Below are positions 16,291-37,947 of a DNA stretch of 46,698 nt, one piece after another. Every line of letters starts with the position of its first letter. Positions within the stretch are counted from its first letter, which is position 1. Under the pieces are notes generated by a model. That model ran no database searches, was not told the DNA's origin, and was given only the letters and a program-made list of their open reading frames with translations. The position numbers were made by a program, and so were the translations under genes. This DNA is from Chrysochromulina tobinii (taxonomy: Eukaryota): NCBI GenBank assembly GCA_001275005.1, contig JWZX01003327.1, positions 1-46,698 on the forward strand. Reading direction: 5' to 3'.

Positions 16291-18427
16291 GGGTCCGCGT
16301 GCGCATCCTCTTTGCTCCCGTCTGCCAGCCGACTGCGCCGCCGCCCACTCGCCGAAGCCACGCGCGCCGCGCCGGGCGTGGTGGGCGACAGGCCGATTGG
16401 TGGTACCGTACCCAGATTGTCGGTTTGCAGCTGCAAGCCGCCGAGGGGGGGCTTGCGCACGGCGGGCGAGGGGCCGCTCGCAGGCATCTGGTCGAGCGTG
16501 CCTTGACGGGTTGGCATTGGTGGCGCGCGCCGCCCGAACGAAGCTGCGTGAGCTCGACTGCTCTCAGACTCTTCGCCCTGCTCTCGCGACTCTTCGGAGT
16601 TGGCACCGCCGCCCCCCGCGCCGCCGCGCGGCTGCGCGTGCAGCGCCTCGATCTGCCGCTGCGCCGCCTTCAGGCGCGCAGCGAGAGCTTCCTTCTCGGC
16701 GAGCGCTTCATTGAGTTGTCGCTGTGCCTCCTTAAGATCGGCGAGCTGCTGCTGCGCCATGCGCGCCGCCCCCGAGGCGCCGCTGGCCGAGGCCGAGGCG
16801 GCGGCGGCCGCGCCGCTGCCCGCGCCGCCGTCGGCGGCGCTGCTGCTCGCCCCTTCACAGGGAAGCTGGCGCCGCTGCGCCTCATGCGCTATCCGCTGCT
16901 GCAGCACCCTGATCGTCTCGTCACGCTGCCTCAGGGCCGCCGCGAGATCTTGCCTGACCGACGTGACGACGGCAGTGGAGGTGGCGTCGGAGAGACTATC
17001 GCTCCGGAGAGTGTGCTCCACGTGGCGAAGCACCGTCTCCGACAGCTGCGCCGGCATACCGCCGCGCACCTCGTCAAAGTGCGCTCCCACCTGATGAGGG
17101 AGGCAATCAAAGCTCATCAGGGCTGATGAGGTAGGCAATCAAAGCTCGTCAAAGTGCGCTCCCACCCGTCGCTCCCATTCCGCGGCGGTGATGGTCTGCC
17201 GAGAGCCCTCAATCGCACTCGGCTGTGGCGGCGGCATCGGGGTGGAGCTCGTCGAGGGTACGGTGCATCCCTCGACGAGGGACTCGACGCCGTCGAAGAA
17301 GGCATGCCTCAGCGCCATCGAGGCCGTCAGCCGCTTCTCCGGATCGTAGTTGAGCAGCCGCTGGGCAAGGTCGATGGCGGCCTCGGGTGTCTGTGCTGGG
17401 AACATTCGCTCCCATGGGTACGCCTTCAGTTTTGGCAGGTCGTCGGCGCAGCAGGTGGCGCGCATGGCCTGAAGGTCGTGGTCGGTGGGCGTGCCCAGAA
17501 GCTTCATGATCTCCACCAGGTGCTGCTGAGTCGAGTCCTGCCCCTGGTAGGGCAAGTGGCCGAGGAGCAGCTCCATCAGGATCGTTCCGACCGACCACAC
17601 GTCCACGGACACCGAGTACTCGGTCGCGCCGAACATGAGCTCGGGCGCGCGGTAGTAGCGCGAGCAAATGTACGAGACGTTGGGCTGCCCCTTCACGAGT
17701 ACCTTGGAGCACCCAAAGTCGCACAACCGGCACTTGAGGCTTGCCGGGTCGCACAGCAAATTGTCGGGCTTGATATCTCGATGGCAGATGCGGCGCGCGT
17801 GGATGTACTCGAGCGCCCCAAAGGTTTGCCACAGGTAGGCCTTGATGTGATCGGGGTGGAAGCGCTTGGCGCGCTTGTGGTACTTGAGCGCGATCGAGCG
17901 GATCGTCTCGGGCAGGTAGTCCATCACGAGGTGTAGAAAGGTCTCATCCTTCTTGCGTCCGTTCTTCTCGAAGGAGTGGCGCAGCCGGACGACGTTGTCG
18001 TGCTCCATGACCTTCATCATCTGCAGCTCGCGGTTGTGGTAGCGACGGTCGAGCAGCACCTTTTTTATGGCGACGATCTCGCCGTCCTCGGTGCGCGCGC
18101 GCCACACGATGCCAAAGGCTCCGTGGCCGACGACCTTCTCCAATTGGTAACGGTGGCCGCCGCCGTCCCAGACGGTGCCCTCCTCGACGCCCTCCATGAG
18201 ATCCGCGACCTGCGCGCAGGTGCGAGCGGACAGTCAGGCGTGTGATCGACGTCAGCGCGCCCGGCTGGCCAGGTCACGCTGCGCATGCTCTGCTGTGATG
18301 AGGAGAGAGGCGGTTTGGAGGTGCGCGATGGGAAGGCTTAACGAAGCCAAGAGCTCGCTGCGAGGAGCTGCGTGCGGTCCGGAAGCGGGTGCTGGGGGTG
18401 GCAGTGGCTCACATGGTCCGTGCTCAT
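16272..18427 (-). CDS. GSK3: GSK3/shaggy-like kinase with long C-terminal coiled-coil extension; exons 18427-18413, 18209-17166, 17090-16272
   Basis: GHGAFG, VAIKK, HRDIKP, DFG and the GSK3 activation loop GQPNVSYICSRYYRAPEL. Two phase-0 GT-AG introns give a 625-aa frame. Confidence 0.9.
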
Positions 18428-18652
18428 CGCTCCTTGCGCGTCCTCCTCCTAGCTCAGTAGTAGAGTAAGTTCGGCGCACGGCGTCGCGAAGAAAGCGCAG
18501 CGAACGCAGAGGGAAAAACTTCTGCGGTTCGGAAATCGAATTTTCAAATCTTCAAACCTGGAGACTCTCGTGGGCATCGACGGAAAGTGCCCAGGCCGGC
18601 GCAAATTCGCGAAAAGTGAAGAACAAGAAAGGCGCAACACAGGCGGCACAGG

Positions 18653-19260
18653 ATGCCGCTCGCGTCGCTTCTGCCTTTGGGCATCATCATGGGCGCCATC
18701 GGCGTGTGTGGCACGCTGCTGTCGGTGATCCCGTACGCGACGCGCGGCGAGGTACGTGCCCGCACCCACGCTAGTTCACAGGCCAGGAGAGGCCACGCAC
18801 ACGCAGAGGCGGCGATCAGAGGAGTGCGCAGGCAGCGCTGCGGCCGGCACAGCCGACACGTTCCGTGTTGCGGCTCTCGCACCTCCTGGCACTGTCAGCG
18901 CCTCCGCAGCCTTTTGAATTGGCAAGATCGGCAGGACCGGCAGCTATGGCAGCCATGGAAGTCATGGCATGGCTGCGGCGCAGGCGGCAGCAGGTCAGCA
19001 GCAAACAGCAGCAAACAGCAGCAGTAACCTCCTGCTGAGCTCGAGGGCGCGGCTGCATGTGGAACGAGGATGCAAGAGCACAGGCCCAGGGCTGCCACTC
19101 AGTCACCAGCTCCTGCGCCGCGCGCGTCCCTCCGGTGCTGACCGTGAGCCACCTGTCCCCCTCTGCGTGCTTCGCGCAGCGCAAGCGTGTCATCAAGGAT
19201 CGATGGGTGGAGGCCATGTACGACCGAGACGCTTTGATCAAGATGCAGTTCGGGAAATGA
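18653..19260 (+). CDS. NDUFA1: Complex I accessory subunit NDUFA1 (MWFE)-like; exons 18653-18751, 19180-19260
   Basis: The spliced 59-aa product MPLASLLPLGIIMGAIGVCG...GE|RKRVIKDRWVEAMYDRD matches the MWFE pattern (TM helix, then KR...D.W...M..RD). GT-AG intron 18752-19179. Confidence 0.8.
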
Positions 19261-19968
19261 CGGCGGCATCGCCAACTCATGTACAGTCTGTCACGGCGCG
19301 GCGGGCGTTTTTCCGCACCGATCTCCTGGCTCTCCACACACTCTGACGCTCTCGCATTGAAATGCAGCGGCTGTGTCATGCTGCAGGTGTCATGTGAGCC
19401 ACCTAGCGAGCCTGCAGTGGCCTCCATGTCATTTGGATACTATTATCCGATAAGTCTTTTTAAACAGGTTTGGCTCAATGTATGGAACGCGTCGGCACAC
19501 GCGCAAAACACGCGGCGAACTCTCGATCTCCGTAGACTCGTACCGCTCTCCCGACGTCGCTGGTCGCTCCCGCTCGGCGCATCGACGTCCCTCCGTCACA
19601 CACTCTCACTACTCGACATCGTACATCGAGCGGAACAAGCTGTTAAAATAAAGCGTTCTTGGTCATTGCGGAAACCGAAACCGACGCCGCGCCGAGTGCG
19701 CTACCCCGTACCGCCGAGTCGACGCGATTCGCAGAGTCTCGACCTCGACGGATCCGCGTCCGATCGGAGAGGTGGCAGGTGTTCGAGAGATGGGATCGGA
19801 TCACGGTGGGACGGCCGGAGGGGTACTAGAGCGAAGTTGAAGCTTAATATTACGTAACTAAAGCCGAGCTTGCGGCTCGACTCATAATCCAGCTGTAAAC
19901 ACAATTCAGCTGCAATGTGCATTCACAGTACTTGTAAAAGCTCCTACGCAGCCGACTCGCGAAAAACC

Positions 19969-22227
19969 ATGTCGAGTTTGGCATCTTCAGGTAACCTTAC
20001 CCACGAGCGCCACGTTGACAGGGCCGTGACGGGCTCAAACATCAAGGGCAAAGAGGGTATTGTGATGTGGACGCCTCTCGGCATCCACATGGACGCGTAC
20101 TTGGATAAGGCGTTCCAACCGCACTTGACGATGTACGGTGTGGACTTCTCCGACCCAGGAAGGCGCTCTGATAAGATACCGCGCAAGCAGCGGCATGGCC
20201 GAAAGGCGCTCGGGCCGGAGCAGCAACTCGGCTCACAGGTCGCGGACCTCGTCTTTGGAACGGGCCCTATGCAGCGCGATGGGCAACGGCTGGAGCACAA
20301 TGTGCGGCCACCTTGGACTCCGGCCTCCATCCCCGGCTTCATGGGAATCAATTCGGCTTTCACGTCCGAGGTCGCCGCGGGCATGGCGATGCCACCGGAC
20401 GAGAAGGCCGACTTCCTCGTCGACTCAAGCAGCGGAGCACGCTGCTACGTGCACCGCAGCACCTCTGCGCCGCCACGGTCGTCGGCATGGGGGCGGTCTC
20501 ATGGCTTCCGAGACGACGTGATCGTCATCTCGCCGTCCGAGGATTGTGCGCGTGCGGAGCGGCGCGCGCTCGTGCCCGACGGGCACCGGCGCTCGGACCA
20601 CAACTTTTCGGGAGGCAGCATGCTCACCTCATCCGACGCCGACGTGGCCGGCTACGTTGAAGGGGCCCACCGAACGCTGCCACGCGACAACTTGCAAGTC
20701 GGCAGCTGCGCAGTCGACCCAGCGAGTGCGTCGCGCAGCCACGATCGAGGCGTGCGCATGCGCCGGCCCACGCAGCGGCACGTGAGTGAGGCCCACTTTC
20801 TGGGCTCCGAGCTGGACGACAGATCGCTCAGCAGCCCTCGGGCGCGTGTGCGCGCGAGCGATGAGGCTGAGCGCGCTGCTGCCCTCAAGCCGCACGGCAC
20901 GCACACACGGGACCTAGCTTCCCACTTCACGTCGGCGCCGTCGGTGTACGCTCAGCACGGCGCTCCAAAGCTCGACGTTGAGATCGACGATGGCGTGAGC
21001 CACGGTCGGGTGGACGTGATGCGCCGTCTTGGGCGCATCCACGGCGATCGGGTCGATGGCGACCGAGGGCACGCTCGGGACGGCGCTTGGGACGGCGCTC
21101 GGGACGGCGCTCGGGACGGCGCTCGGGGTGGCGGCGCTCGGGTCGGCGCTCCTCCGCGGGAATCAGAGCCGCCGTCGCCCGAGGCGCGTCGGGGCGTCGT
21201 CCCGGGCGCCGCGGCGATGAGCCGGAGAGCGCCGTCCCGAGCGGGTCTAGCATCGCCGCTGCTCGCGCGTCGCTCAGCGTTGGAGGGCCATCCCCTCCAC
21301 TACTTCTCCGAGCGGCTCCACTTCGCCGACGACCACGCCCACGACGGCGCGGCGCGCGAGGGGGCGGCGGGCGCCGTCGTGGGCGCAAGGCATGCAAGGC
21401 ATGTAAGCGCCCTTCGGCCCTCGGTTTGGGGCGTCGGCTCGCACGACGTGAGCACACACGGGATGCTGCACTACCACGACGAGCCGAACGCTCACGACGG
21501 CGCGAGTCCTCCGGTCGTTCCAATGAGGGGCGAGGCACGCGACACAATCCGAGCGCCTATGGGCGAGGCACGCGACACAATCCGAGCGCCTATGGGCGAG
21601 GCACGCGACACAATCCGAGCGCCTATGGGCGAGGCACGCGACACAATCCGAGCGCCGCGCTCCCTCTCGCCACGCCCAGAGGCCAGACCAAATTTGGATC
21701 GCCCGGAGGCCAGCCCAAATTTGGATCGCCCGGAGGCCAGCCCAAATTTGGATCGCCCGGAGGCTAGGCCTCAACCATGGCACGGCGATCGATCGCCGCG
21801 TGGCGGAGGTGGTGGTAATGGCGACGGCGGCGGCGCTCGAGACGGCGCTCGAGGCGGCGCTCACGGCGGCGCTCTCGGATCGCCACGTGGGCGCATCAGT
21901 ACTAGCGTCAGCGGCGGCAGCGTCTGCAGCAGCCCTCGAAGCAGGAGCAGCAGCAGCAGCCGCCTCACCTACGCGCTCGTCTCGCCGCGCCCGTCACGGC
22001 GCGGTACCTCTGCCGCCGCGCTCGAGGCCCGTGCAGGCCACCTTTTCGGCGGAGGGCTCACGCCGGTCGACGTGAGTGCCCGGCACAGCGCTCACGGATG
22101 GGAAGGGCTCGAGTCGCCACGCAGCTTCCCGCCCACGCCCCGGGGGGAAGGGCTCGTTCACAGTCACACCCCTCGGGAAGGGCTCGAGTCGCCACGCAGT
22201 ACCCCTCGCGCTCATCTCTACGATTGA
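19969..22227 (+). CDS. Hypothetical low-complexity protein with internal tandem repeats
   Basis: Long ORF of about 750 aa with no recognisable domain. Introns within the repeat region cannot be excluded. Confidence 0.5.
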   Translation: MSSLASSGNLTHERHVDRAVTGSNIKGKEGIVMWTPLGIHMDAYLDKAFQPHLTMYGVDFSDPGRRSDKIPRKQRHGRKALGPEQQLGSQVADLVFGTGPMQRDGQRLEHNVRPPWTPASIPGFMGINSAFTSEVAAGMAMPPDEKADFLVDSSSGARCYVHRSTSAPPRSSAWGRSHGFRDDVIVISPSEDCARAERRALVPDGHRRSDHNFSGGSMLTSSDADVAGYVEGAHRTLPRDNLQVGSCAVDPASASRSHDRGVRMRRPTQRHVSEAHFLGSELDDRSLSSPRARVRASDEAERAAALKPHGTHTRDLASHFTSAPSVYAQHGAPKLDVEIDDGVSHGRVDVMRRLGRIHGDRVDGDRGHARDGAWDGARDGARDGARGGGARVGAPPRESEPPSPEARRGVVPGAAAMSRRAPSRAGLASPLLARRSALEGHPLHYFSERLHFADDHAHDGAAREGAAGAVVGARHARHVSALRPSVWGVGSHDVSTHGMLHYHDEPNAHDGASPPVVPMRGEARDTIRAPMGEARDTIRAPMGEARDTIRAPMGEARDTIRAPRSLSPRPEARPNLDRPEASPNLDRPEASPNLDRPEARPQPWHGDRSPRGGGGGNGDGGGARDGARGGAHGGALGSPRGRISTSVSGGSVCSSPRSRSSSSSRLTYALVSPRPSRRGTSAAALEARAGHLFGGGLTPVDVSARHSAHGWEGLESPRSFPPTPRGEGLVHSHTPREGLESPRSTPRAHLYD
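21523..21770 (+). repeat. In-frame minisatellites: 4 x 33 bp (MGEARDTIRAP) and 3 x 27 bp (PNLDRPEAS)
   Basis: Visible directly in DNA and in the translation. Confidence 0.9.
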
Positions 22228-22772
22228 ACGGCGGCTGCTGCGGCGGGGGTGTGACTGTGAACGACGTCGTTGGGACCCGACGTCAGATTGATTCCTCAGA
22301 GCTCAGTGCCCAGACTCGAGACTAATACCACAGACCCGAGACCCTCAGACTTTCAAGATTCAGTACCTGAGTGAGAGTGTGCGGCCACGCAGGTCGCAGC
22401 CACGCGCGACGGGGCGCGAGTCCGTCGGTGTCTGCACCGACGCATCATCGACGGTATACCTGTCATGGACGGTAATAGAACCGTCACGGCGCGTCGACGA
22501 CCCGGCGCGCGGTCCACCGTGTCGCGTGTGGGGGCGACTCGGACAGACAGTCAGACACTCGGACAGCGGAACGAGCGGTGCCGGTGGCGGGCCGATCGAA
22601 CGGAATGAAAAACGTTGACCAGCCGGTTTCGCGAAACCTCCAATACCGGGAATACGGACGGGTTGTTCATCTAAGATTAATCTAAGATCACATCTATTTC
22701 TTAGAACGTTGACGTGACGTCGTGACGGAAAACCCACTACCCTCTGGCTCCCTGGGGGATCTACTCCCGGAT

Positions 22773-24373
22773 TCAGTCAAACCCCGGCCCGAAGCAGCCG
22801 GAGCCTGCACCGGCGCCCATGGCAACGCGCTCATTCTCCGTCATCTTGGAGCGTGGCTTCTCGTCACGGAGCCACTTGTGCCTCTTCTTGGCCTTGGCGT
22901 CTGCGGGAGAGTACTTGCGCTTGTGCTCGGCACCGTGCTGGGCGCCGGGAAGCGTCGGGCCCGCGGCGGCCGCAAGCTCGCCGTCGGACGGCGCCGTCGC
23001 GGGCGGCGGCGGCGGCAGCACGCCTTCGAGACGGTATGTGCGCGAGGAGGCGCCGAACGTGAGCAGCGAGCCCTGCTTGAGCAACACGGCCTCGAAGGGG
23101 CGAAGCCGTGTGCCGTTCACGGCGGTGCAATGGCTCGATTTGAGATCGATTAGGTAGAGCCCGCCGTTGGTGTGGTGCACGAGCGCCGCATGCTGGCGTG
23201 AGATGGACGGGTGATCGAGCTGGAAGTCGCACGTGAGCGAGCGCCCGAACGTGTACATCGGGTGCTCGCCCACTGGGAGCACCTGCAGCAGTCATCAGCA
23301 ATCATCGGCAGTCATCGGCAGTCATCATAATTCATCAGCATTCATCAGCATTCATCAGCAGTCATCAGTGGGCATGGGAGCACCTCGAGCTCCTCGCCGC
23401 CCTTGGACACCACAAGCGACGCGTCCTTCCCGAGGGAGGGCGGAGCAGACCAGCTCGGAGGGAGCTCGAAGTCGCCCTCGTCAATGGGCTTCGGTTTCGG
23501 CAACGGGACGTACACGCCAGTACGCTCGCCGCTGAGCTCCTTTTGGAACTCGAGCAGGCAGCGCCAGAAGCCTTCATTCGGTTGGATGATCGGGCGCGCC
23601 GCAGCGACATGCTCGCGAGCCCGCTGCGCACTCCACCCCTCCTGACGCATGAGGTACGCGATGCAGAGCGACGCAGAGCGTGAGACGCCTCGCGAGCAGT
23701 GGACGAAGACGGCGGTCTGCGCGGCTCGCGCGGCCTCGATGATGTCGAAGGCGGTGCCAAAGTGCGCCTTGATGTCCGCCTCCTCCACGTCGCGCACGTC
23801 GCACCATGTGTGCCGCACGCCCGACTCGGACACGCTCGCCTTCAGGCTAGACGGCAACTCGGCGAGCGCGGTGAGGGCGTGCTGGATGTTGAGCTGCTCG
23901 CGCAGACGCGGGAGCGCGGCCGCGTCGGTGAGATCGCCGAGGTAGAGCAGCCCCGGGAGCACGCACGACGGGCACAGCGGCCGCTTGGCTGCCTTGGACG
24001 ACGACTGCTTGGCACACATGAACGGGAAGGCGGACTCGAACGCCGAGAAAGGCTCACTAAGCAGCAAGAGTTCGCGGCAGCCGCCTCCGCGAAGCAGCGC
24101 GAGCGCGACTGCGTGGTCTCCACTCGCCGGCTCGGCATCTATGAGGCAGATGTCACGGCCCATCCATGAACGATCCGAGGCTCCGACCACCTCCACCTCG
24201 CCCTCTGAAGTGAGCTCCACGCGATGCGAGCCCCGGATGATGCGCTGCTTGCTGCTACCGCTCTCACGCAGGTCCAAACACACTGGGGAGCCACCAGAGG
24301 GCCAGTTGGACTGGTGCTGCAGCAGGTTGAAGAGCTCGAGAGAGGTGACTAGGCGAGGAGGGCGGTCGGTCAT
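22773..24373 (-). CDS. Rhodanese-like + dual-specificity phosphatase + FHA domain protein; exons 24373-23384, 23282-22773
   Basis: CLDLRE...IRGSHRV (rhodanese-like), DVEEADI and VHCSRGVSRS...IQPNEGF (DSP), YTFGRS...HPSISRQHA...DLKSSHCT.VNG (FHA). Phase-0 intron 23283-23383; 499 aa. Confidence 0.85.
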
Positions 24374-24748
24374 GAAGTTGAAGTGGAAGTGGCGAGAGAG
24401 GGTGTCGGTGTGCTGTGAATTCAAGAGCTCGGTCTTTTGAAGTACTATTGTAGGAGTGAGCTCTGCTACGCCGACCGGCGGAACGCCTGGGCGCCGGAAC
24501 ATTATTCCCCGCGCGTACTGTACCTGGTACGTGTATCCACCGCAAACAAGCACCGCGGCGCAAGCGCGCCAACGTGAGCGTGCCGGTTCGGCGTGCGCCA
24601 GGGAGCTGAGTCCGAAACATCAAACCGATCCATCTCGCCACACCCGACCAGACGCTACAAGCACGCCGCGTGCGGCGGCGGCGCCCGTCGAATCGTGGGG
24701 CACCCAGATTCGGATGCTCATGTGCTGGCGGTGTCGGCCATCTCAACA

Positions 24749-25382
24749 TCACGGCGTTGTCGCTGCACGACCCTTTTCCACGCGATCGGCGTTGCCGTGG
24801 TCAGAATTCGGTGCAGCGTCCTCCTCCGCGTGCAAACCCTCGTCGACGCCCTCAGCGCCGCTGCCATCAAAGAGACCAGCGACCTGAGGCCTGCGGCGCT
24901 GGGACTCCAAGCGCAATAGGTACTCCTTTGCCCACTGGACACTTTTCGCAACGTCAGCCTCTGGCGCTCCTGCGGCCTTTAGCACGCGACCGAGGATCTC
25001 CTCGCTGCGTTGCCCAGAGACGTCGAACTCGCTCCGGTGGCCGTCAGCGAGCTCGACAATAACCGCAAGCACCCTTTTTGTCCTCCTCAGCCCATCGCTG
25101 CACAATGGACGCATCGGGGTTTTGCCATCGCAGCGCTGGCATGAGCTTGTTGAATTTGCGCGCGCCCGCCAACCCAACGCCTTCTGAAGCGTGCAGAATC
25201 TTCAGTGAGGTCAGTGAAGCCAATCGCAGCGGTGCCGCCTCGAGCGGCTCACGCAGCTTTCCCCATCCAAGGTCAACGTCTTTGACCTTCGCGAGCTTGC
25301 CCCCCGCGCGCTTGCTCGCAAATCCACGCGTTGCTGCACCCCCCCGCAGCGGCCCAGCAGCGGATGTTGCCCGCGCGAGCAT
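24749..25382 (-). CDS. Mitochondrial L51/S25/CI-B8-domain protein with apparent +1 frameshift near 25075
   Basis: Presequence-like MLARATSAAGPLRGGAATRGFAS. GARKF..LMPALRWQNP lies in one frame, and the domain continues as VIVELADG...FDVSGQRSEEIL in the +1 frame. Confidence 0.65.
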
Positions 25383-25624
25383 CGACCTGTCTTTTCCTCG
25401 TGCCGTGCCTGCCGCGAGTTCGAGCGTCCTCCTGGGCGCTCGATTTCGACGCACCCCTCAACACGACGTTGCTTTTCTCCGACACATCGTCTTCTTTTCG
25501 CTCTCCGCTTTCCACAGCTCCACAAGTAGCTTCTCCGAAGTCGGCCACTCAAAAACTTGCAAACTCGCGACGCGCGCGCGCGCGCACTCACACGCAGACT
25601 GGCCGAAGATACTCCGCGTCGGCC

Positions 25625-26686: not shown

Positions 26687-27523
26687 TACAAGTAGCTAGT
26701 ACGGTGAGTTGCACTCACTCAGAACTTGTGCGAACGAGCGAGACGCGCGAGACGCGCTGCGGAATAGCTGCGGGACGCACCGATCTATTTCGTACCGCGT
26801 GCGAGGAGCAGAATGGTTGCGGTTCCTGTTGAAAAATATGGTGATGTGATGTCGTTGTGTCGTTGATGATGCTGTTGCTGATGTGGCGTGGTCGTTGTTT
26901 CGTTGACGCTGGGTCGAGCGAGACTTTGAGATTTTGAGTTCTGTTCTTCGGTATTTACGCAAAAAATGCCGCTATGCCTCTGGACCCCAACACGCAACAG
27001 TTACATGTAGAGCCGTTCAACACAAATCCACTCTAAATCCACTCTAAATCCACTCCGGTCCTTCACCACGTCTCGCACCGCTTTTCCCCTTGCATCTCGC
27101 ATGCAGAATTGCAGTTATACGTCCAGGTTGAGCTTCATGGTCAGTGACCGTATTGAAAAGGATGAAAACGCCTAAACGCCTTGTAAGGCAGCGTCCAATT
27201 AGGAGATGACTTGACAGAACCCACAGCCTTGCCCACAGCAGTGATCCAGTGATCCACACATGTTCACCGTGTGTGCTCATGTAACCGTGTGTGCTCATGT
27301 AAGCTTCTATTTGTACACTAAACACTATTAGTTATAACTCAGCTTCTATTAGTGTACGAATTGCTAGGTTGTGAGGTTCGTCAGTGTGATCTGTGTGTCA
27401 GTCCCGTGTGTGTCCCGGCGCCCCCCTGTGTTTTTCAACCGGATCCGTTTCGTTCAAACTTTGTGTAACGCTTTGTCGACCTTTGCGGTACAGCATAAAG
27501 TTCGAAGGAAGCAGAACGGCACG

Positions 27524-28675: not shown

Positions 28676-29261
28676 TTGTACATATGCGTAAAAGTGTTTC
28701 TGAGCGTTCTAAGAACTTCCCGCCCGGGTGCGGTGGCGGACCCCCCCGCGACCCGCGCGCGCCGCGGTCAACACCGCCCGGACCCCCCCCCCGGGGACAC
28801 GGGCGGACTGACCCCGCGGTCTGACCCGCCCGCGCGCCCGCGCGACCCCGGCCCTTTTAGTTCCCTATAGTAGCGTTGGGGGCGAGCGGGTCCCTACCTA
28901 CCCCTGTCGGATCACCAAAAATTCACTCAGGATACTGTATCCTGCCGGACGGTGCAGAGATACATTGTACATCAAAATACGTCAGGCAAGATTAACAAGA
29001 TAACAGGCACGTCAGGCGTCAACGCGTCATGTGGCGCTTACCAATTATGGGTTTCTGGCGCAGGATACGATAGGAAACCCATCTAAAATCGAAGAAAACA
29101 CTCCACCTCTCCCTGAGCTGAATCCCAGGAGTGCAGCCGAAGGTCGATTCCCAAATCAGCTGCGAATAAAAGACCTCAAAAAGGAAAGTGACGCGAGGAC
29201 TCCAGAAAACTCCACAAAGAACAACTCTTTGGCGTCCAGAAGGCTGTGCGACACTTCCGAC

Positions 29262-31061
29262 ATGACGCGTATCAACCACGAAGAGGGCGACGCGGAGACG
29301 GCCGATGTCGCGAATCTGGGCGAGGCAGTGGGCACCCTTTCTCTCTCGCCGGCCGCCTCGGAGCCAGCCACGATAGATCCGAGCGATGAGAGCTTCTCCC
29401 GCGGCTCGGAGACCTCGAGTGGTCCAACGATCCGCCTCTTCATCGGTGACCTTCACCGGAGCACTACTGAGGTGAGTCGGCGCTTGCACGTCGAAGCCTT
29501 GTCGAACAATGCGCTCCTCTGGCGTTCGTATGACCTTGCTGAGGCGCCGTGCTACCCTATACCGCCAAACATAGGCTGCACCACTGTTTGAGCGTGACGC
29601 ATGATCCCCCCTTGCCCTTCGCAGGCGAGCCTGCGCAAGTATTTCGAGCAGTACGGGAGTGTTGAGCGCGCGACGGTCAAGCACCCAAATGCGCGCCCAT
29701 GGCAGCGCCACGAGCCTCAAAACCATACCGCGCAGCGTAGCTTTGGCTTCATCACGGTCTTCAGCGACGAGCTTGCGAAGAAGCTCACGTCGATGACGCA
29801 TATTATCGATGGGCATCACGTGGGGACGCCTGAGCTGGCGAAGCCGGCGCGCAACGACCGCGAGAAGGCTCGTCGAGGCGAGGGAGCCGAGGGAGCTCTC
29901 AATGCCAACGCCATCCACGCGTCCGCTGGATGGGCACTCGGTCCGAATAGCACTTGGGAGCCTACGGCGACGCGCAAGATCTTCGTGGGGGGGCTCTCGC
30001 ACCAGATGAAGGATCAGTCGCTCATGAGCTACTTTTCGCAGTTCGGCACCGTCGCCGACGTCGTCGTGATGACCGAGGGCTCGTCCCGTCGGCCACGTGG
30101 CTTCGGTTTCGTCACCTTCGAGGACCCGAAGGTCGTGATGGCCGTGACTCGAACGCGCTACCACCCTATCGAAGGCCGGCTCGTCGAGGTGAAGCCTGCG
30201 GTGCCGCGCGAGATCATGAGCCTCACGCAGGGCCAGAACCCAGCTGTCGTAGGAGCCGGCGACAACGACTTCGCGACCCCGACGGGTGACGCGATGGCCT
30301 GTGGCCTAGTCGTGCCTGACTCCACGCCCGGCTCGCCCACGATGGCCATCCCGGGCCAGGAGTGGTATTCGAACGGGTACGGGTACGGGTACCAACAAAA
30401 CTACGCGGCCCCGAACCAGATGATGATCGGCGGCGGCATGCCCGACATGACGATGACAACGGGCGTCCCGGTCTACAACGGTTACGCTCCGGGATTCGCG
30501 CCCCAGATGATGGTTCCGATGGGCATGATGATGCCGATGGCCAACGTCATGGGCACCGCGATGCCACCCGTAATGTCGCCCGCGATGCCGCCCTCGATGG
30601 TACCGAACCCGGTCGCAAAGAAGATGAATCAGATGGCCGCGCCGCCGCTGATGATGCCCTCGCCCCACAATATGATGCACGGCGGTGCGAACATGATCCA
30701 AGCTTCCCACATGGCCTATGGGGCTCTCGTGCCAACGCCCCATGCAGCTTCCCGCTTGCCTCCCTCGTCGGGCGGGCAGCCTGCGGGTGGCTGCATGTCG
30801 TTCAACGCGGCGGCGCCGATGCCCATGAGCACAGTGCACATGGGCCACATGCCAAATATGGGCCACATGCCAAACATGGTGATGCCCATGGGGACTTTCC
30901 CCACGATGCCCCCCCATGCGTGGTCTTCGGCAGGCACAGCGGCGGCGGCCTCGTACGCTGGACCCCCGCCCATGCCTGGTGCGGTGCCGGTCGACGCGAC
31001 GGCGACACTGAAGGCGCCGGAGGCACAGACGGCGTCGGCGACAGCGGACTCGTCCGCGTAG
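29262..31061 (+). CDS. Two-RRM RNA-binding protein (hnRNP A/Musashi/DAZAP1-like) with Met/Pro-rich tail; exons 29262-29471, 29625-31061
   Basis: RNP2/RNP1 pairs RLFIGDL / RSFGFITV and KIFVGGL / RGFGFVTF, then VEVKPAVPR. GT-AG intron 29472-29624. Confidence 0.9.
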
Positions 31062-31215
31062 GTCTCGTGTCGTAGTGTCCGCATAGGGCTTGGGGCAGCT
31101 TCCAACCGGGAATCGAACAGGGAGCTGGTACACAGGACGAAGAGGGAGGCAAGGGACGTGCGGAATCCCTCCGGCGGCAGGGGACGCACGGGGGCAACCC
31201 TACCAACGACGCGAT

Positions 31216-31429
31216 TGGGCAGTGGCGCAGCGTCGGGAGTTCGATCTGCATGCAAGTGCTCACCACGGCGTCGTTTCTCATGGGCAGTGGCGCAGCGTCG
31301 GGAGAATGCACTCGAGAGGGTGGATCTGCATGCAAGTGCTCACCACGGCGTCGGGAGAATGCACTCGAGAGGGTGGATCTGCATGCAAGTGCTCACCACG
31401 GCGTCGGGAGAATGCACTCGAGAGGGTGG
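31216..31429. repeat. 53-bp tandem repeat (about 2.5 units plus a partial) containing GCATGCAAGTGCTCACCAC
   Basis: Units start at 31295, 31348 and 31401. The core motif also occurs at 16014, 16090, 31248 and 31574. Confidence 0.9.
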
Positions 31430-32131
31430 GCGTGCGGTGGCGGCAAGTGGGGCAAAGGGCGGGGAGTGGGAGGCATTTGGCAGGAACGAGGCAGGCCACA
31501 GAGAGGCAGCAGCCAACAGCTGCGGGGGGCGGCATGGGGGCGGGCAGAGCAGGCAGGCCAACAGGACGCATCAGCATGCAAGTGCTCACCACAGCGCAGA
31601 TGCCTCCGGTTGGGTCGTGGGCGGCATGGGCAACAGTGACCTCGCCGTTCGTTAGGACCTCGTCGAGAGACTCTCCTAATAAAGGACAGGGCTCGCGGCC
31701 AGGGGCCTCGTAAAGGTCATCAGGATCCGCTGGGATCGCCCTAAGCGATCGCGCGCAGCGTCAAGAGGTACTGAGGTAGGCTCCCCCCTCTTGGGGGAGC
31801 AAGGTGCTCGTGGAATTGGCAGGCTCAGATGGAGAGCTCGATGTGCTGGCGGCTTCATTGGCGAACAAGGAAGTGATGAGTTAGTAATGAGATGTGGCAG
31901 GTAGATGGTGCGGCATGCTCGCTAGAGCCGCCGACGCGCGACGGATCTGACGGATTTGACGGGTCTCTCGACTCTCGACCGTGCGTGGTGCGGTGCCTCG
32001 AGTGCACATGGGTGCGAGACGCTGTATGCCTGTATCTCTGGGTTCGTGGATGGGGATGCTGGGAAGGTGCTGGTTATTGTGTTTTTTCCCTTCTGCGCCA
32101 TGTTTCAACGAGTGTGAAATGCCGGATCATG

Positions 32132-32316
32132 TTGAACGTGAACTCAGAGATACAATCTCCCTTCCGCGTCTTTGGTAGGTCTTCACGCGAAATCAGAGTG
32201 GTCTACTATTTTTCATGTTTATAAGGCCCCACCCCTACACCTGTTTGGGAATTGAATGATGAACGTGAACTCGGAGATACAATCTCCCTTCCGCGTCTTT
32301 GGTCTTCACGCGAAAT
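32132..32316. repeat. About 60-bp direct duplication upstream of hyi
   Basis: tgaacgtgaactc(a/g)gagatacaatctcccttccgcgtctttggt...cttcacgcgaaatc at about 32133 and about 32260. Confidence 0.9.
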
Positions 32317-32348
32317 CGCGAAAGCCTTCAACCTTCGCGCCTGCCGCA

Positions 32349-33155
32349 ATGAGAGGCCTTGCCGCAAACCTTTCTTTCTTCTTCAAGGACCGTCCGTTCA
32401 TAGAGCGATTTGCTGCCTCTCGCGCTGCGGGTTTCCGTGCGGTCGAGTTTATGTTTGCCGGCGATGGCAAGTACGCCTGTGACTCTGCCGATGTACGCAG
32501 AGCTCTGGAGGAAAATGAGCTCGAGCAGGCACTCTTGAACGCGCCTGCCGGCGACTGGCTGAATGGCGAGCGCGGTATCGGTGGCATAGCCGCACGAGAG
32601 ACCGATTGGAAGGCGAGCTTCGAGTATGGGCTCCGGTTTGCTCAGGACGTTCGCTGCTCCAAGATGCACATTATGGCAGGGCTGCGCTCACACGGAGCGA
32701 CCTAAGATGTGTACGTCGAGCGGCTTCGGTGGGCGAGCAGAATCGCCGCTGACGTGGGCGCGTGCATTTGCGTCGAGCCCTTGAACCCAACCGACTTTCC
32801 CGGATATCTCGTTCCTGACGTTTCTTCAGCGCTACGCATACTGGAAAGGGTTGACGCGCCAGGCCACTGCCAGTTGCAATTAGATCTGTACCATGTCGCG
32901 ATGGTTGAGGGCACTGACCTTACCAGCGTGATCCGAAGAGCGCTGCCTCACACTGCCCATGTCCAGATTGCCAACCCTCCTGGGCGAAACGAACCCGGCG
33001 TCGGGGTCATCGATTTCCCTCCGCTGCTCGCACAGCTCGGCGAGCTTGGCTACAGCGGTTGGGTTGGGTGCGAATACAAGCCCTCCACGCCGATTACCGA
33101 GCAGTCGCTCGAGTGGGCGCGAGCTGCTGGATGGTTGACCCCAGCAACGGCATGA
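32349..33155 (+). pseudogene. hyi: Hydroxypyruvate isomerase with in-frame TAA at 32703-32705 (pseudogene, base error or readthrough)
   Basis: AANLSFFF...RFAA...GF.AVE, HIMAG, then in the same frame after the stop: VEPLN, QLDLYH, HVQIANPPGRNEPG, GWVGCEY.P. Confidence 0.85.
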
Positions 33156-33488
33156 ACTTGAGCGACCCGAAGTAGACCGGGAGGCACACCACTCTTACGG
33201 GCGCCGGACGACCGGTGCACAGAAGCTTTTTGCGATTACGAGGGATACGCGACGGAAGATGCGTGTGCATATCATGTATGCATATACCACACCTCTTCAA
33301 CTAGGAAATAATCTCTGTTTGCGCTCGCGTGCGAGAAGACCACCTGCACCATGTCGCATGTGGGGGACTGTAAGCCCGCACGCATGGACCCATGGGGCCC
33401 ATCTCTCTGTGCGTGCGAAAGCCACGGGCCACGAGTGCTCCAGAGGCCAAGGGCGGGAGAACTCTTGCGGTGTCCTGCCGATTCTTCT

Positions 33489-33902
33489 TTAGATGGTCAG
33501 GCCGAGGTACACCAGCACGGCGGTCACCACGGCAACCGCCGCCGTGCCATAGATGAGTGGGCTGTCGTTGATTTGAGCGGTCACGCCGCCGGCCTTCTTC
33601 ACGAAGCGTCGGCGCGGGCCCGCGCACTGCGGGCACTTCCAGCGGGGGCGAAGCTCCTCGAACGGCCTGTCAGCGCTCGGCTCGTAGATGTAGCCGCAGT
33701 CAGCGCATACCCACTCGCCCGGCCAGTAGCCCTTCTCCTCCAGGAGCTCCTCGGTCGACTTCTTCTTCTTGCCGAACTGCATGACTGCGGGCTCGGCGCG
33801 GACGGCCGCGCGGGATAGCGTGCGCGCGCCCATCGGGGCGACGGCCGCACGAAGCGCCTCCGACGCAGTGCACGCCAGACACAGAAGGGCGACTCGAAGC
33901 AT
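33489..33902 (-). CDS. Plastid-targeted rubredoxin-like protein with C-terminal TM anchor
   Basis: Signal peptide plus Ala/Arg-rich transit peptide, WVCADCGYIY...WKCPQC, hydrophobic C-terminus. Confidence 0.85.
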   Translation of the reverse strand: MLRVALLCLACTASEALRAAVAPMGARTLSRAAVRAEPAVMQFGKKKKSTEELLEEKGYWPGEWVCADCGYIYEPSADRPFEELRPRWKCPQCAGPRRRFVKKAGGVTAQINDSPLIYGTAAVAVVTAVLVYLGLTI

Positions 33903-34143
33903 TTTTTGCACGGAGTATCTCCGAGCGGAGAGGTGTGTCTCGCGGGGTGCTTTCGCGAAACTTTCTTACGGTTTTAACGAAGTTTAGCCGCCATCCCCTA
34001 AACATTCTGCGTCTCGCACCGGCGACTACGCTCAAACAACCCACAGCAAGGGAAGGACGTCCCCGATAAGTGAGATGACTTCGCCAACTGTGAGTCGGGA
34101 TGATCATTGACAAAACTGATGACAAGACCTCGTCCCCTGTTCT

Positions 34144-37100
34144 TCAGATTTGGAATTCAATGACCTCGGCCGTCGCCGGTGCCGCGCCCGCGGCGGCCGC
34201 GACGAGCGCCTCGTCAATCTCTTCGACAGCAAAGGAGGGCGATTGGTCCATTCCAAAGAGCTCAAGGCGCGACGAATGGAAGTGGAGCAGTGATGGACGG
34301 TGGCCCACGGAGAGGTACGTGATGCCCGGGACGGCGCCAATGGCGCGGTACATGGCGGCCTCATTTTTGAGGTCGAGGGCGGAGGTTGCCTCATCGAGGA
34401 TCGCGAGGCGCGGCTTGTTGACGAGCACGCGCGCGAACGCGAGCCTTTGCTGCTCGCCCAAGCTCAGCTCATCACCCCAGTCGCGCACCTGCAATCAGCG
34501 TCCATCATCAGCGCACCCCAGTCGCGCACCTGCAATCAGCGTCCATCATCAGCGCCCATCTTCAGCGCTCATCATCAGCGCCCATCTTCAGCGCTCATCA
34601 TCAGCGCCCATCAGCGCCCATCATCAGCGCCCGTCAGCGCCCATCAGAGGCCACTCACCTTCCATAAGCGGCACGTCCGCGGCACTCACCTAACACAATC
34701 GCACCTCAATTGCATTCAATCGCACTCTCGAGGAGCCTAATCATTGCTAATCAATCTCATACGATGCTAATCAATCGCACTCAATCGCACTCTCAATTAG
34801 CCGAATCATTGCTAATCAATCTCATACGATGCTAATCAATCGCACTCAATCGCACTCTCAATTAGCCGAATCCACGTACCCGATCAAGCCCCTCCTTGCC
34901 AAGCGCAGCCAGCCGACCAAGCTGCACCGTCTGGAGCGCACGCAGGAGCGCCTCATCCGTGTTCGTGCGCGACCACTCGTCGACAGTGCTTGGGTACACA
35001 AGCTGCTGGCGCAAGCTGCCCAGCGTGCAATAGGGGCGCTGCGGCAAGAACATGGTCTGCCCGACGGGTGGGCGCGTGACCTCACCGGAGCCGCGATCCC
35101 ACAGGCCGGCCATCGCGCGCAGCATGGAGGACTTGCCTGTGCCCGAGTTGCCCATGATGAGCAAATGGTGGCCCGCATGCACGTCGACCGACACGTTGGC
35201 GAAGAGCTTGCGAGTGCCGTCGGGGGTGAGAAAGCACAAGTCACGCACCTGATGAGGGAGGCAATCAGCGGCCATCAGTGGCAATCAAGGAGCTCGCAAG
35301 GGCCGTTGGGAAAGATGAGGCTCAGGCGACGCACCATGAGCAATGGCTCTTTCGCCCCCCCCCAGGGTGCAATCAGTATTCAATCATCATTCAATCAGCA
35401 TGCAATCAACATGCAATCAGGCATGCAATCAGGCGACGCACCGTGAGCAACGGCTCTTTCGGGTCCCCCCAAGGTGCAATCTCTCGGTTGAAGATGCGGC
35501 CCGTCGTACTTTGCCGTGTAACGACGCCCAGTAGGGGCTGAGCCGCCAGCGGCGACGCTGCTGGCGGCGGCGGCGATGCTGCTACTGCTGCCAGCGCCGC
35601 CGCTGCCTCGTCCGCGGCGCCCACGGGCGGTGCGGACGGCGGGCCGCGCTGCCCATACAGAATTCGATCCCATAGTGAGCGCTCGGGTTCATCCACTGGC
35701 TGAGTGAGTCGAGCGAGGTGTTCTTTGCTCAGCCGGAACGTCGCGTTACTCTCGCCGCCGCTTTGGAAGCTCTCCATGCGCTCGACGAATGTGCTCAGCC
35801 GAGCGAGCCCTGTGGGGCAAGCACGAGAGGATGGTCCTCAGAGGTCCTCAGAGATCCTCAGAGGTCCTCAAAGGTCCTCAGAGGTCCTCAAAAGCCATCA
35901 GAGGCACTCAGAGGGCCATCAGAGGGCCATCAGAGGGCCATCAGAGGGCCATCAGAGGGCCATCAGAGGGCCATCAGAGGGCCATCAGAGGGCCATCAGA
36001 GGGCCATCAGAGGGCCATCACCTGCGGAGAAGGACGATAGGCCCTCGAACTGGTTGACGATGATCGACAGGTCATTCAGGACGTGATTGAACGCGCCGGT
36101 CGATTGCGTAATCACGCCGAGCTCTACTGAGCCTGCCAAATGTAGACATCGAGACGATGAGCACCGGCAGTGCCAAATGTGGACAGCGAGACGATGAGCA
36201 CCGGCAGGAGGCCATCACAGGCCATCAGAAAGGCCATCAGAGAGGCAACCAGAGGCTTTCAGGGAGGCCATCAGGGGTCATCAGAGGTCATCAGAGAGGC
36301 AACCAGAGGCTTTCAGGGAGGCCATTACCTGCAAAGTAGAGAGGGGAGACGACGAGAACCGGTAGGATCTGGATCAGGTACGAGTAGCCCACTGTGAAGA
36401 ACTCGAGGTTGCGCATAGTGCCTAGGATGGCGCGCTTGTTGCCCACCACGCCACTCAGCCGCGCGCTCACTTCGGCCGCCTCCTGCGCTTCACCCTGGGA
36501 CAAGAGCGAGCACGGCGAGCATCAGGGAGAGGTGCCCAGAGAGAGAGAGGTGCCCAGAGAGAGGTGCTCAGAGAGAGAGGCGATCAGAGAGAGAGAGGCG
36601 ATAAGAGAGAGGTGCCCAGAGAGGCGATCAGAGAGAGGCGATCAGAGAGAGGTGCTCAGAGAGAGGTGCTCAGAGAGGCGATCAGAGAGAGGCGATCAGA
36701 GAAGGTGCTCAGAGAGAGGTGCTCAGAGAGAGAGGTGCTCAGAGAGAGAGGCGATCAGAGAGACCAGATCGTCGCCGATCTGCGCCCACCTGGTAGACAC
36801 CCACCTGGTAGAGAGACCCTCAGAGAGGCAATCAGAGAGGCAATCAGAAAGGCAATCAGAGAGGCAATCAGAGCCGATCCGCGCCCACCTGGTAGAAGGC
36901 GATAGACTCTGCGTTCTCTCTCAAGCGCACAAGCGAGTAGCGCAAGTCAGCCTCGCGTAAGAGCTGCTGCGCATTCTGACCAACGAGAGCCTGGCCGAGC
37001 TTGATGGTGGTTATGGAGCCCACGCCCGCGTACACGAAGATGGCGTAGAACAGGTTGGGGTAGATGGAGTACAGGATGCCCGAAAAGGAGGCGAGGTCGA

Positions 37101-37947
37101 TGACGGCCGTCATCAGTGTGATGAAGAAGTCGAGAGACACCTTGGTGAACGCTGCCACGTCCTCAGTGATGCGCTGGTCCGGGTTGTCAATCTCGCGGTC
37201 AATCTCAATCTTGTAGTACGCCTGGTCGGAGTAGTACTGCCGTGCGAGCTCCGTCGTCATCCACTCACGCCAGTTGAGTGCGAGCCGCGCGCGCTGGAAC
37301 TTGTAGAGCACCTGACGAGGGAGGCACTCAGCGGGCATCAGCGGCCATCCGCATGAATCAGCGGCAGCCAGAGGCCCACGTGAAACTCATGGGGCACGCC
37401 CATCAGCGGCAGTCAGCGGCAGTCAGCGACCCTCATGATACTCATAGAGCACCGTTAGCGGTGTGGCCACAGCCAAGCCGAGGGCGTAGTTGGCCGTCTT
37501 CTCAAGGAAGAGGACCTGATCCTTGGCCGAAAGGGCCGAGTAGAAGTCACGGCCGACGTACGAGAAGATCACCGAGACGCCCGAGTTCATCAGGACGAGC
37601 AGCAGCATCAGCCCAAAGTTGAGCTTGGCGCCCTCGGCCTGCTGAAAGTAAGGTAGCGCGAGGCGCCAGAAGAGGCGCAGGCGCTCCTGCACGGTGACTG
37701 GCGCCGCCGCGTCCATTGAGACATCGCCTTCAGAAACCTCACCCTCATTTGCCGCCGTCGCGCAGATGGGCCGCGCGCGCGCCGACGACGACGACGCCGC
37801 CACTGCCACGAGCGGCGGCACGGCCGCCGCGCCTCGCCGTCGCAAGACGACGGGCGGCGCGGCGGCGAGCGCGGTCAGGCCTATCGACAGGGCCGAGGAG
37901 GAGGTCGTGGTCGCAAAGAGCGACACCACCAGTAGCGGCCGGTGCAT
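34144..37947 (-). CDS. ABC transporter D-family half transporter, probably plastid-targeted; exons 37947-37453, 37311-36889, 36494-36329, 36132-36022, 35809-35442, 35248-34880, 34488-34144
   Basis: DNPDQRI, EADLR..LVRLRENAESIAFY (EAA-like), Walker A GNSGTGKS, FLPQRPY, LSLGEQQRLAFAR, ILDEATSALD and SVGHR. Six GT-AG introns give a continuous 758-aa frame. Confidence 0.9.

Follow-up and report, generated by a model that had tools for sequence, protein, structure and literature searches.

Introner-like introns with partial copies and variable target duplications in the haptophyte Chrysochromulina tobinii

Genes and introns of the window

The window analyzed here is a stretch of 46,698 nucleotides from Chrysochromulina tobinii (contig JWZX01003327.1). 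Two genes on its minus strand have introns that end in a common 19-nt sequence: a protein kinase gene, which we take to be GSK3-like following the initial annotation, and a gene for an ABCD-family transporter. Their features and those of three other places in the window are listed in Table 1. Splicing of the module introns in both genes is predicted from reading frame and homology. The ABCD model reads through 759 open codons, counting the stop, and homologues align colinearly across all six of its junctions. Retention of GSK3 intron 2 leads to a stop at residue 361, and two homologues, P0114 and P0117, span its junction. The window also contains an RNase H open reading frame at 41736-43118.

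Table 1. Genes, introns and intron parts in the window.
Feature	Position	Strand	Length	Phase	Content and basis
GSK3-like protein kinase gene	16213..18427	-	625 aa		3 exons; reading frame, kinase domain by Pfam
GSK3 exons	18413-18427, 17166-18209, 17090 downward	-			625 aa frame
GSK3 intron 2	17091..17165	-	75 nt	0	copy of next exon's first 21 nt, two module copies
GSK3 intron 2, duplication copy	17145..17165 (exon copy 17070-17090)	-	21 nt		source of GT donor; exact, 21/21
GSK3 intron 2, acceptor module	17091..17109	-	19 nt		exact; window scan
GSK3 intron 2, inner module copy	17123..17141	-	19 nt		1 mismatch, 32-nt tandem period; window scan
ABCD-family transporter gene	34144..37947	-	758 aa		7 exons
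ABCD intron 1	37312..37452	-	141 nt	0	copy of next exon's first 8 nt, repeat units, module at 17/19
ABCD intron 1, acceptor module	37312-37330	-	19 nt		2 mismatches; window scan
ABCD intron 2	36495..36888	-	394 nt	0	repeat units, internal copies of donor junction
ABCD intron 3	36133..36328	-	196 nt	1	mirror class; repeat units from donor on
ABCD intron 4	35810..36021	-	212 nt	1	17 repeat units
ABCD intron 5	35249..35441	-	193 nt	0	copy of next exon's first 6 nt, repeat units, exact module
ABCD intron 5, acceptor module	35249-35267	-	19 nt		exact; window scan
ABCD intron 5, secondary copy	35326-35354	-	29 nt		copy of exon/donor junction
ABCD intron 6	34489..34879	-	391 nt	0	repeat units; acceptor with exon start copied in tandem (41 nt)
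DSPc-FHA gene intron	23283..23383	-	101 nt	0	copy of next exon's first 9 nt, 10-nt units ending CAG
Duplication with second module's core	31216..31304	+			exact 24-nt copies (31216-31239, 31281-31304), 41-nt insert
Second-module fragments	16014..16108	+			two, in local duplications; antisense to GSK3 3' flank, outside called introns

The initial annotation had stated that the 19-mer ends GSK3 intron 2 and ABCD intron 5 exactly and ABCD intron 1 at 17 of 19 positions, and that all three are phase 0 introns followed by an exon starting GTG. The window scan reproduced these matches, and the gene models agree on phase and exon start, in the GSK3 case from its reading frame. The scan added the inner copy in GSK3 intron 2, which the annotation lacked; 100 shuffles of the window gave no match. 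The introns were also said to start with similar GTG sequence. They do start GTG, but each start repeats, without mismatch, the beginning of the exon that follows that intron (21, 8 and 6 nt) and is not a sequence that the three have in common.

Neither ABCD intron 6 nor the DSPc-FHA gene intron has the 19-mer. Three ordinary-looking introns in the window have neither module nor repeat units; 11-12 of 19 positions mismatch the module, and 0-2 nt are shared with the downstream exon start. Repeat units number 33 in 2145 bp of intron, versus 10 in the other 44553 bp of the window. The 24-nt duplication on the plus strand follows the stop codon of an RRM-type gene (the family was named from sequence) and is possibly a UTR intron. 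A scan of the window against Rfam at gathering score gave no match, whether to a tRNA, to another pol III-derived head of the SINE type or to any other RNA family.

The acceptor module and the copied exon start

The 19-mer was found in at least 140 stretches of metagenome contigs, in 187 distinct contexts at 139 loci, where introns of unrelated genes share it. These loci do not overlap the window in unique sequence, so they come either from related genomes or from other regions of the same species' DNA. GT or GC directly follows the module in 103 of 118 distinct terminal copies. The strand and position bias expected at 3' splice sites is present, with the module at an acceptor in sense orientation in 96 of 115 sites. 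Among 70 non-exact sites, conservation spans -20 to -1, an echo of 10 nt lies upstream, and the conserved span is exactly the branch motif through AG. This supports the annotation's view of a short branch/acceptor unit, in which the A at -17 is the predicted branch point. Its contrast with full-length introners holds too: the median shared length anchored at the 3' end is 20 nt over all insert pairs, and the commonest 5-nt insert start occurs in only 3 of 58 inserts.

A bias towards phase 0 turned out to be ordinary. Phase 0 was assigned to 44 of 70 confidently framed module sites (63%) and to 658 of 1065 G/GT sites in coding DNA (62%); some of the ORFs used to train the coding model came from these loci themselves. 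A special phase bias of module introns was rejected because the excess is the same. A viral or prokaryotic source of the module was likewise rejected, with no match in the viral contigs or the prokaryotic genomes searched. One contig of the viral collection (L140) carries the second module described below; it looks like host DNA.

Many module introns open with a repeat of the first nucleotides of the exon that follows. In these, which we call class B, the repeat starts with GT or GC and supplies the donor. An AG-anchored duplication was found at 74 of 166 terminal module sites versus 4 of 498 shuffled ones, so the suspected association with flanking duplications is borne out. After 12 tandem copies preceded by a module and 4 misregistered cases were dropped, 58 of the 74 sites were kept. 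Duplications at these sites, detected at a score of at least 9, are 9-55 nt long with a median of 23, and the shortest intron is 50 nt. The duplication is still exact in 30 of the 74 sites, which means that the copies are young, yet already partial. Where the donor copy differs from the exon, nine differences go towards the donor consensus, two away from it, and four are neutral. The initial annotation had described the intron bodies as local duplications plus simple repeats. The local duplication exists, but it is not incidental filler; it is a target duplication of variable length that supplies the donor.

Several observations describe how the inserts sit in their genes. Removal of the insert keeps the reading frame in 46 of 58 sites (chance is one third). 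A Pfam continuity scan of 46 pairs, most of which have no domain, gave two exact joins, with the models running from 36 to 37 and from 298 to 299 across class B introns. Duplication and insert length are negatively related (rho -0.57 in 40 introns shorter than 125 nt), which is partly forced by the cut-off. The upstream exon end lacks AG in 32 of 62 class B sites (the window's three end CG or GG), and for this reason tandem duplication of AG/GT was rejected as the source of both splice sites. Two broader counts say nothing of enrichment: a first unbiased duplication scan gave 748 matches dominated by simple repeats, and AG/GT was not singled out in a dinucleotide table (36 of 522, below the top rank).

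A long duplication is absent from 92 of the 166 module sites. Donors were called in 41 of these; 14 share at least 5 nt with the exon (null 2.9%) and 13 share just GT or GC. Some module introns may be older introns that acquired the module. It could be argued further that the module is a plain extended splice consensus, old introns having converged on or been converted to an optimal branch/acceptor string, with the duplications as later accidents. The conserved span from branch motif to AG fits this, as do the module introns with canonical donors and no duplication, and some duplications lie directly behind an older acceptor (L008, L067). Such a consensus does not account for the excess of AG-anchored duplications over shuffled sites, for the window's three introns without module or units, for a second, unrelated-looking module with the same layout, or for the absence of these introns from homologous ORFs. 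We consider it very improbable.

A second module, mirror introns and recent gain

The second acceptor module was found without seeding, with a duplication at 28 of 54 acceptor-like sites. It is built in the same way as the 19-mer, with the duplication supplying the donor. In another class, class A, the arrangement is mirrored: the fragment has its own GT donor, and the right-hand duplication copies the upstream exon and ends in the AG that serves as acceptor. This mirror layout was found in 13 of 33 cases versus 1 of 320 controls, and is clear in L027, L030, L045, L056 and L075; at least 3 of the 13 matches are tandem copies spanning an existing donor. Both classes thus have the layout duplication, fragment, duplication, and the fragment's other junction is variable, often with 1-4 nt of microhomology to the 10-nt unit. 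In class B, microhomology of at least 1 nt was found at 13 of the 27 junctions with a unit at the edge (null 8%) and of at least 2 nt at 9 of 27 (null 2.6%); the remaining 31 of 58 junctions have no repeat unit at the edge.

Class A is represented in the window as well. ABCD intron 3 ends in a decayed copy, about 38 nt long, of the last part of the upstream exon, and its AG comes from this copy (0 of 300 shuffles were as good). ABCD intron 4 probably belongs to the same class, with a weak upstream-exon copy (6 of 300 as good). At the 3' end of ABCD intron 2 an upstream-exon copy is not significant (34 of 300 as good).

Donor-carrying copies at four unrelated loci have two repeat units followed by the core of the second module. 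Overlapping pieces can be assembled into a parent of about 70 nt, which is a composite; no copy with both ends was seen in the loci examined. The simple repeats are not independent of the module: they match the 5' half of this longer parent, which also makes the donor-carrying mirror introns.

ABCD introns are absent from homologous ORFs on long contigs (P0016, P0026-P0028, P0001/2 and P0102), and P0003 has no introns at ABCD junctions 1-4. The relatives in this comparison and in that of NDUFS1 below are about 75-91% identical, with no sister species among them. Because a quick tree of the ABCD homologues was poorly resolved and had no close sister, the absences may instead be losses in the relatives. 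For NDUFS1 at L015, all 45 of the 45 best matches examined are contiguous at the intron position, four of them on contigs of 6-19 kb. Near-identical metagenome loci showed repeat-number differences only and no presence/absence of an intron; there is an 80-nt indel between L002 and L004, and L050 and L112 differ upstream. The anatomy of these introns and their recent gain, taken jointly, are in our judgement very probable.

Routes of intron gain

No mechanism has been assigned to about 72% of known introner families, by the figure given in PMC12130899. What is seen here is an introner-like process in a haptophyte that differs from known introners in its partial copies and variable duplication. 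Introners are known from the same lineage, with a strong gene bias: family 5 of Chrysochromulina sp. brings its 5' site along and recruits the 3' site, and an Emiliania family does the reverse (PMC9860276, PMC12130899). Their duplications are reported as 2-5 nt, compared with 6-55 nt here, a difference drawn from the published descriptions. In introner-like elements of Symbiodinium and of Polarella glacialis (classes 4/5 and 6/8/10), the element end likewise forms the 3' site and the duplication the 5' site, and phase bias follows the recruited exonic nucleotides (bioRxiv 10.1101/2020.10.14.339549). As described there, the duplications are fixed at 4 or 8 nt, and those in Symbiodinium come with inverted repeats; here the copies are partial and inverted repeats are absent.

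These likenesses raise the possibility of a conventional non-autonomous transposon, a MITE- or SINE-type introner whose full form is the parent of about 70 nt and whose partial forms have decayed. The parent can indeed be assembled from pieces, introners have been reported in Chrysochromulina sp. MAGs and in Emiliania, and Polarella classes 4/5, in that same description, carry one splice site and co-opt the other. Against this, the duplication length varies over 9-55 nt (2-9 nt is expected of a DNA-transposon introner), no copy has both ends, and exact duplications mark the partial copies as young. Inverted repeats and hairpins were rejected: insert starts match at 4.1 of 10 positions, compared with 4.35 inside inserts, and six of six introns have no folding signal (z -1.35 to 1.86). 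A transposon of this kind is unlikely.

Each of these introns is a fragment of one short family set between two 6-55 nt copies of host exon, and we give even chances to the reading that they were gained when reverse transcription of a piece of an excised family intron filled a staggered break. Nicks on opposite strands, 6-55 nt apart, would leave 3' overhangs, and the antisense strand's 3' end would prime copying of a linear excised intron RNA. Priming at the 3' end of the RNA would give the 5'-truncated copies of class B, and priming inside it would give class A copies that run to its 5' end. The gap would be closed by microhomology end joining, and selection would retain just those events that are spliced out cleanly and measure at least about 50 nt. 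The intron would grow afterwards through slippage and more tandem duplication, and its exon copy would drift towards the donor consensus. Every new intron would be a template, and sub-families such as the 19-mer could spread without coding capacity. Those fragment ends that coincide with intron ends are as expected from excised intron RNA; precise ends can also arise from selection alone. Whether the template was RNA of this kind we regard as a balanced question.

Copies made by target-primed insertion of non-LTR elements are precise at one end and truncated at the other, where microhomology makes the join, and their duplication varies in length. The variable duplications and the truncated, microhomology-joined ends seen here fit that pattern. 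The poly(A) or simple-repeat 3' tail of such copies and their presence in both orientations outside genes were not found: inserts end in CAG with the repeats on the 5' side, and arrays are strand-locked, 124 versus 6, in loci picked around module introns with intergenic DNA under-sampled. Since target-primed insertion predicts both-orientation copies outside genes, the strand lock and confinement to introns require selection or targeting to be invoked. Retrohoming of linear group II introns, in the experiments that PMC3280974 details, also has a 3' junction that is precise and a 5' junction that is truncated and joined by microhomology; there the 5' overhang is lost, whereas here it is duplicated. 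Unlike both systems, these introns have no ribozyme, ORF or poly(A) tail, and either end can be the precise one.

A DNA template could do similar work. A broken or stalled strand would switch by microhomology onto an existing family intron, copy a piece and return upstream, by template switching or in a polymerase-theta-type manner, and selection for splicing would fix one end. This would explain both mirror classes symmetrically without a reverse transcriptase, and it suits the microhomology at the variable junction, the abundant local tandem duplications inside these introns, and the fragments with neither intron end that lie outside called introns at 16014-16108. Small tandem duplications arise from breaks whose 3' overhangs are complementary (PMC8355091). 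The precise junction, however, often has no visible homology upstream (in 32 of 62 non-secondary class B sites the match to the module end there amounts to 1 nt at most), and neutral copies in both orientations should be plentiful, whereas units are rare outside introns. Copying from DNA seems to us possible but doubtful. Intron gain by double-strand break repair, in Daphnia, and by tandem genomic duplication also leaves flanking direct repeats and duplicated exon sequence; the insert there, in the cases that PMC3443670 sets out, is unrelated DNA or nothing, while here one recurring family supplies a splice site.

The strand lock and restriction to genes would follow if the spliceosome carried out half of a reverse-splicing reaction, with transcribed DNA or RNA as the target; this would set the sense orientation and make one end precise, and repair would produce the other. 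Reverse splicing into R-loop DNA has been proposed for introners lacking transposon marks (PMC11146597), a paper that cites just two laboratory transposition events. Classes A and B would need two different half reactions, and fragments with neither intron end exist. We think this route quite unlikely.

More tentatively, the introns of this lineage may spread as partial copies of themselves without a dedicated transposon, by reverse transcription of excised RNA into staggered breaks. Either half of an intron would suffice, with the target copy as the other splice site. A large part of the lineage's introns, with their 10-nt repeats, would stem from this process, which would have escaped introner surveys that compare both ends. 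The Emiliania genome paper is said to mention intronic repeats of 10-11 bp.

The 2022 introner pipeline judged similarity at both intron ends (PMC9860276), so one-ended families would be missed and algal intron gain may be under-counted. C. tobinii has no introner families in Gozashti et al. (PMC9860276, PMC12130899), and a search of literature outside subscription journals found no paper describing the present layout in haptophytes. Each event leaves a readable scar, in which the dead exon copy dates the event and shows the precise end. At three module introns per 47 kb, extrapolation suggests that a related genome would offer hundreds to thousands of sites for comparing RNA- and DNA-templated gain. 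Gene calls are corrupted by the repeats as well: the translated module is present in 22 database proteins matched by a read-through query.

The shared acceptor module and its host genes

The 19-nt sequence that the initial annotation had placed at the ends of three introns was found on the minus strand of the window as described, with two exact copies and one carrying two mismatches, and shuffled window sequence gave no match to it. A fourth, inner copy lies at 17123-17141. In the ABCD gene all six junctions are colinear with homologues (38 aligned). Named ABCD homologues include Prymnesium parvum and Emiliania huxleyi, with pelagophyte homologues more distant, which makes a haptophyte the most probable host. 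Removal of intron 2 from the GSK3 kinase gene gives 625 residues and its retention gives a stop at 361; its junction is spanned by homologues P0114 and P0117, both from short contigs, which may be transcripts.

The 19-mer is present in at least 140 stretches of metagenome contigs, and among the matches listed there were 238 exact copies in 187 distinct contexts in 139 loci. A search of viral contigs and prokaryotic genomes found none. In the loci among the matches listed, 103 of 118 distinct terminal copies were followed by GT (83) or GC (20), and the downstream coding signal was better on the sense strand for 96 of 115 terminal copies, in line with a strand and position bias at 3' splice sites. 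At 70 non-exact sites, anchored on the last nine bases only, positions -20 to -10 agree with the module at 0.61-0.94, so the module covers a branch-type motif followed by a pyrimidine tract and the AG; these sites also show a 10-nt echo upstream of it. The 19-mer intron family is real and widespread in related genomes, and probably represents a new variant form of introner-like intron gain.

The phase-0 excess seen in the three introns is background: 44 of 70 confidently framed sites (63%) are phase 0, matching 62% of G|GT sites in coding DNA. The excess is a proto-splice-site effect, as reported for dinoflagellate elements in the accessible text of bioRxiv 2020.10.14.339549, and not a trait of the family. 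Repeat arrays share the strand of the seeded module in 124 of 130 cases; of the remaining six, several adjoin acceptors of opposite-strand genes. Eleven introns of the window, 2145 bp together, hold 33 eight-base units, versus 10 in the other 44553 bp.

A target duplication that supplies the splice donor

The three introns do begin alike, as had been noted, but GSK3 intron 2 and ABCD introns 1 and 5 each start with a copy of their own downstream exon start (21, 8 and 6 nt), so the shared GTG is a target duplication. A fourth window intron (23283-23383), without the 19-mer, carries a 9-nt copy of this kind. Anchored at the base after the AG, the exon copy is present at 74 of 166 terminal sites versus 4 of 498 with swapped flanks, which confirmed the suspected association with flanking duplications. 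Setting aside 12 tandem copies with the module in front of them and 4 misregistered ones leaves 58, and removing the stretch from the first copy to the AG kept the reading frame in 46. Pfam models joined exactly upon removal in two of the 46 pairs scanned, most of which have no domain: NDUFS1 and a kinesin.

The duplications are 9-55 nt long with a median of 23, and no intron among them is shorter than 50 nt. Where intron copy and exon copy differ, 9 changes are towards the donor consensus, 2 away and 4 neutral, a lean that would mark the intron copy as a working donor. A purine is enriched at +3 (106 of 119 GT starts versus 62% in coding DNA), and in 13 of the 27 cases where a repeat unit starts at the copy end, the two share 1 nt or more (null 8%). 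The other 92 of 166 terminal sites have no long duplication; among the 41 donors called there, 14 share at least 5 nt with the exon and 13 only the dinucleotide. These sites speak against a uniform origin of module introns.

Other inserts were also seen. In L006 (2501-2576, minus) and L011 (2501-2676, minus), two metagenome loci, duplication plus bare module is repeated to 76 nt (unit ~38 nt) and 176 nt (unit ~46 nt), as if doubling were required for a spliceable length. Locus L025 (minus, ~5160-5223 of the reversed locus) holds a duplication-flanked insert of telomere-like TTAGGG-containing repeats with an AG end. Duplication-flanked inserts with an AG end also occur in L027 (minus), L039 (plus) and L077 (plus), built there of different short repeats, and the layout therefore spans more than one repeat type. 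Loci L050 and L112 are near-identical downstream and different upstream, one with an additional repeat-rich intron, possibly through rearrangement or exon shuffling at the intron boundary.

A second module, a mirror class and a composite parent

A second module (core GCATGCAAGTGCTCACCAC) stands at the ends of many introns and was met in flanks without seeding. Its 95 loose core matches gave 54 acceptor-like sites, 42 of them followed by GT or GC and 28 with a duplication. Outside called introns, one fragment lies within an exact 24-nt duplication (31216-31304) and others in local duplications (16014-16108). A further copy with a pyrimidine tract and CAG (15802-15837, minus), ~400 nt past the GSK3 stop, is a possible 3' UTR intron.

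Donor-carrying copies were found in four unrelated loci (table). Their 3' end duplicates the upstream exon end, the source of the AG, in 13 of 33 candidates versus 1 of 320 swapped; at least 3 of these 13 are tandem copies that span a donor already present. By its sequence ABCD intron 3 belongs to this mirror class, and intron 4 probably does; in intron 2 the upstream-exon copy was not significant.

Positions of the ABCD gene (window) and of donor-carrying copies (metagenome loci)
Feature	Location	Positions	Strand	Content
ABCD gene	window	34144-37947	minus	seven exons, 758 residues
Donor-carrying copy	L056	1916-1982	plus	GT, two 10-nt units, second-module core
Donor-carrying copy	L045	2141-2217	plus	GT, two 10-nt units, second-module core
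Donor-carrying copy	L030	1013-1091	minus	GT, two 10-nt units, second-module core
Donor-carrying copy	L009			GT, two 10-nt units, second-module core

From the overlap of donor-carrying with acceptor-carrying pieces a parent of ~70 nt can be assembled, its 3' part exemplified by L011 (4174-4244, minus); no single copy with both parent ends was seen. In L007, L039, L068 and L109 a variant matches the 19-mer over its first 15 nt before continuing like the parent's middle. Since the 19-mer differs from this variant by a 6-nt deletion, we infer that it descends from the parent. The module has two more endings: one continues in TTGCATGCAG (L007 plus, L013 minus, L039 minus, L068 plus, L109 plus), and the other ends in CCCTAATTAG (L002 plus, L025 plus, L043 minus) and also occurs as a graft behind the second module.

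Age, mechanism and relation to known introners

Metagenome gene calls sometimes run through introns (P0095 on L011's contig), and ORFs that stay open over a long stretch of a long contig were therefore taken as a sign of intron absence. Such ORFs cover all six ABCD intron positions in homologues P0016, P0026, P0027, P0028, P0001/P0002 and P0102 (contigs of 5.4-15.8 kb), and the first four in P0003 (323-kb contig). On a quick, weakly resolved tree, which left out 13 near-duplicate or aberrant rows, the intronless ABCD homologues are scattered, with 4 changes. NDUFS1 is contiguous across the L015 junction in all of the best 45 of 120 matches, four of them on 6-19 kb contigs. Duplications are still exact in 30 of 74 cases, and no strain polymorphism of these introns was seen among near-identical loci. 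Intron gain is a simpler reading than loss in relatives.

All classes share one layout, a fragment of the family intron between two copies of a duplication, and this is the scar that a staggered break would leave after being filled in by templated synthesis. The break would have opened in a host exon, and its filling would leave the duplication on either side of the fragment. We favour excised intron RNA as the template, a fragment of which may have been reverse-copied, because the precise ends fall at intron termini, while the variable duplication and the truncated, microhomology-joined end recall target-primed insertion, of which they are a hallmark. An experimental analogue of such an end is described in the accessible text of PMC3280974. 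The main rival, a DNA template followed by selection for splicing, explains the mirror symmetry of both classes equally well, and we hold it somewhat less likely than the RNA template.

The introner-like label stands in part. One splice site is carried and the other recruited, as in an introner that recruits one site from its duplication (accessible text of bioRxiv 2020.10.14.339549). Transposon-type introners, in contrast, show both-end similarity, a fixed duplication and inverted repeats, whereas this family lacks the first, has duplications of variable length and showed no inverted repeats. The available text of PMC9860276 and PMC12130899 records haptophyte introners with duplications of 2-5 nt, versus 6-55 nt here, which sets them apart as described. 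C. tobinii is listed with no introner families, and the 2022 survey (PMC9860276) judged similarity at both intron ends.

Elsewhere in the window, an ORF at 41736-43536 (plus) has an RNase H domain (Pfam E 3e-9; PHROG), and past a frame change come stretches that we take to resemble family-A polymerase motifs. Downstream lie 118-nt tandem repeats (43660-43894) and a gene start duplicated in inverted orientation (~45520-45830 and 46280-46500). The whole is probably a degenerate mobile element. The ORF at 32350-33153 (plus), presumably hydroxypyruvate-isomerase-like, has an apparent in-frame TAA near 32704, a possible pseudogene or sequencing error.
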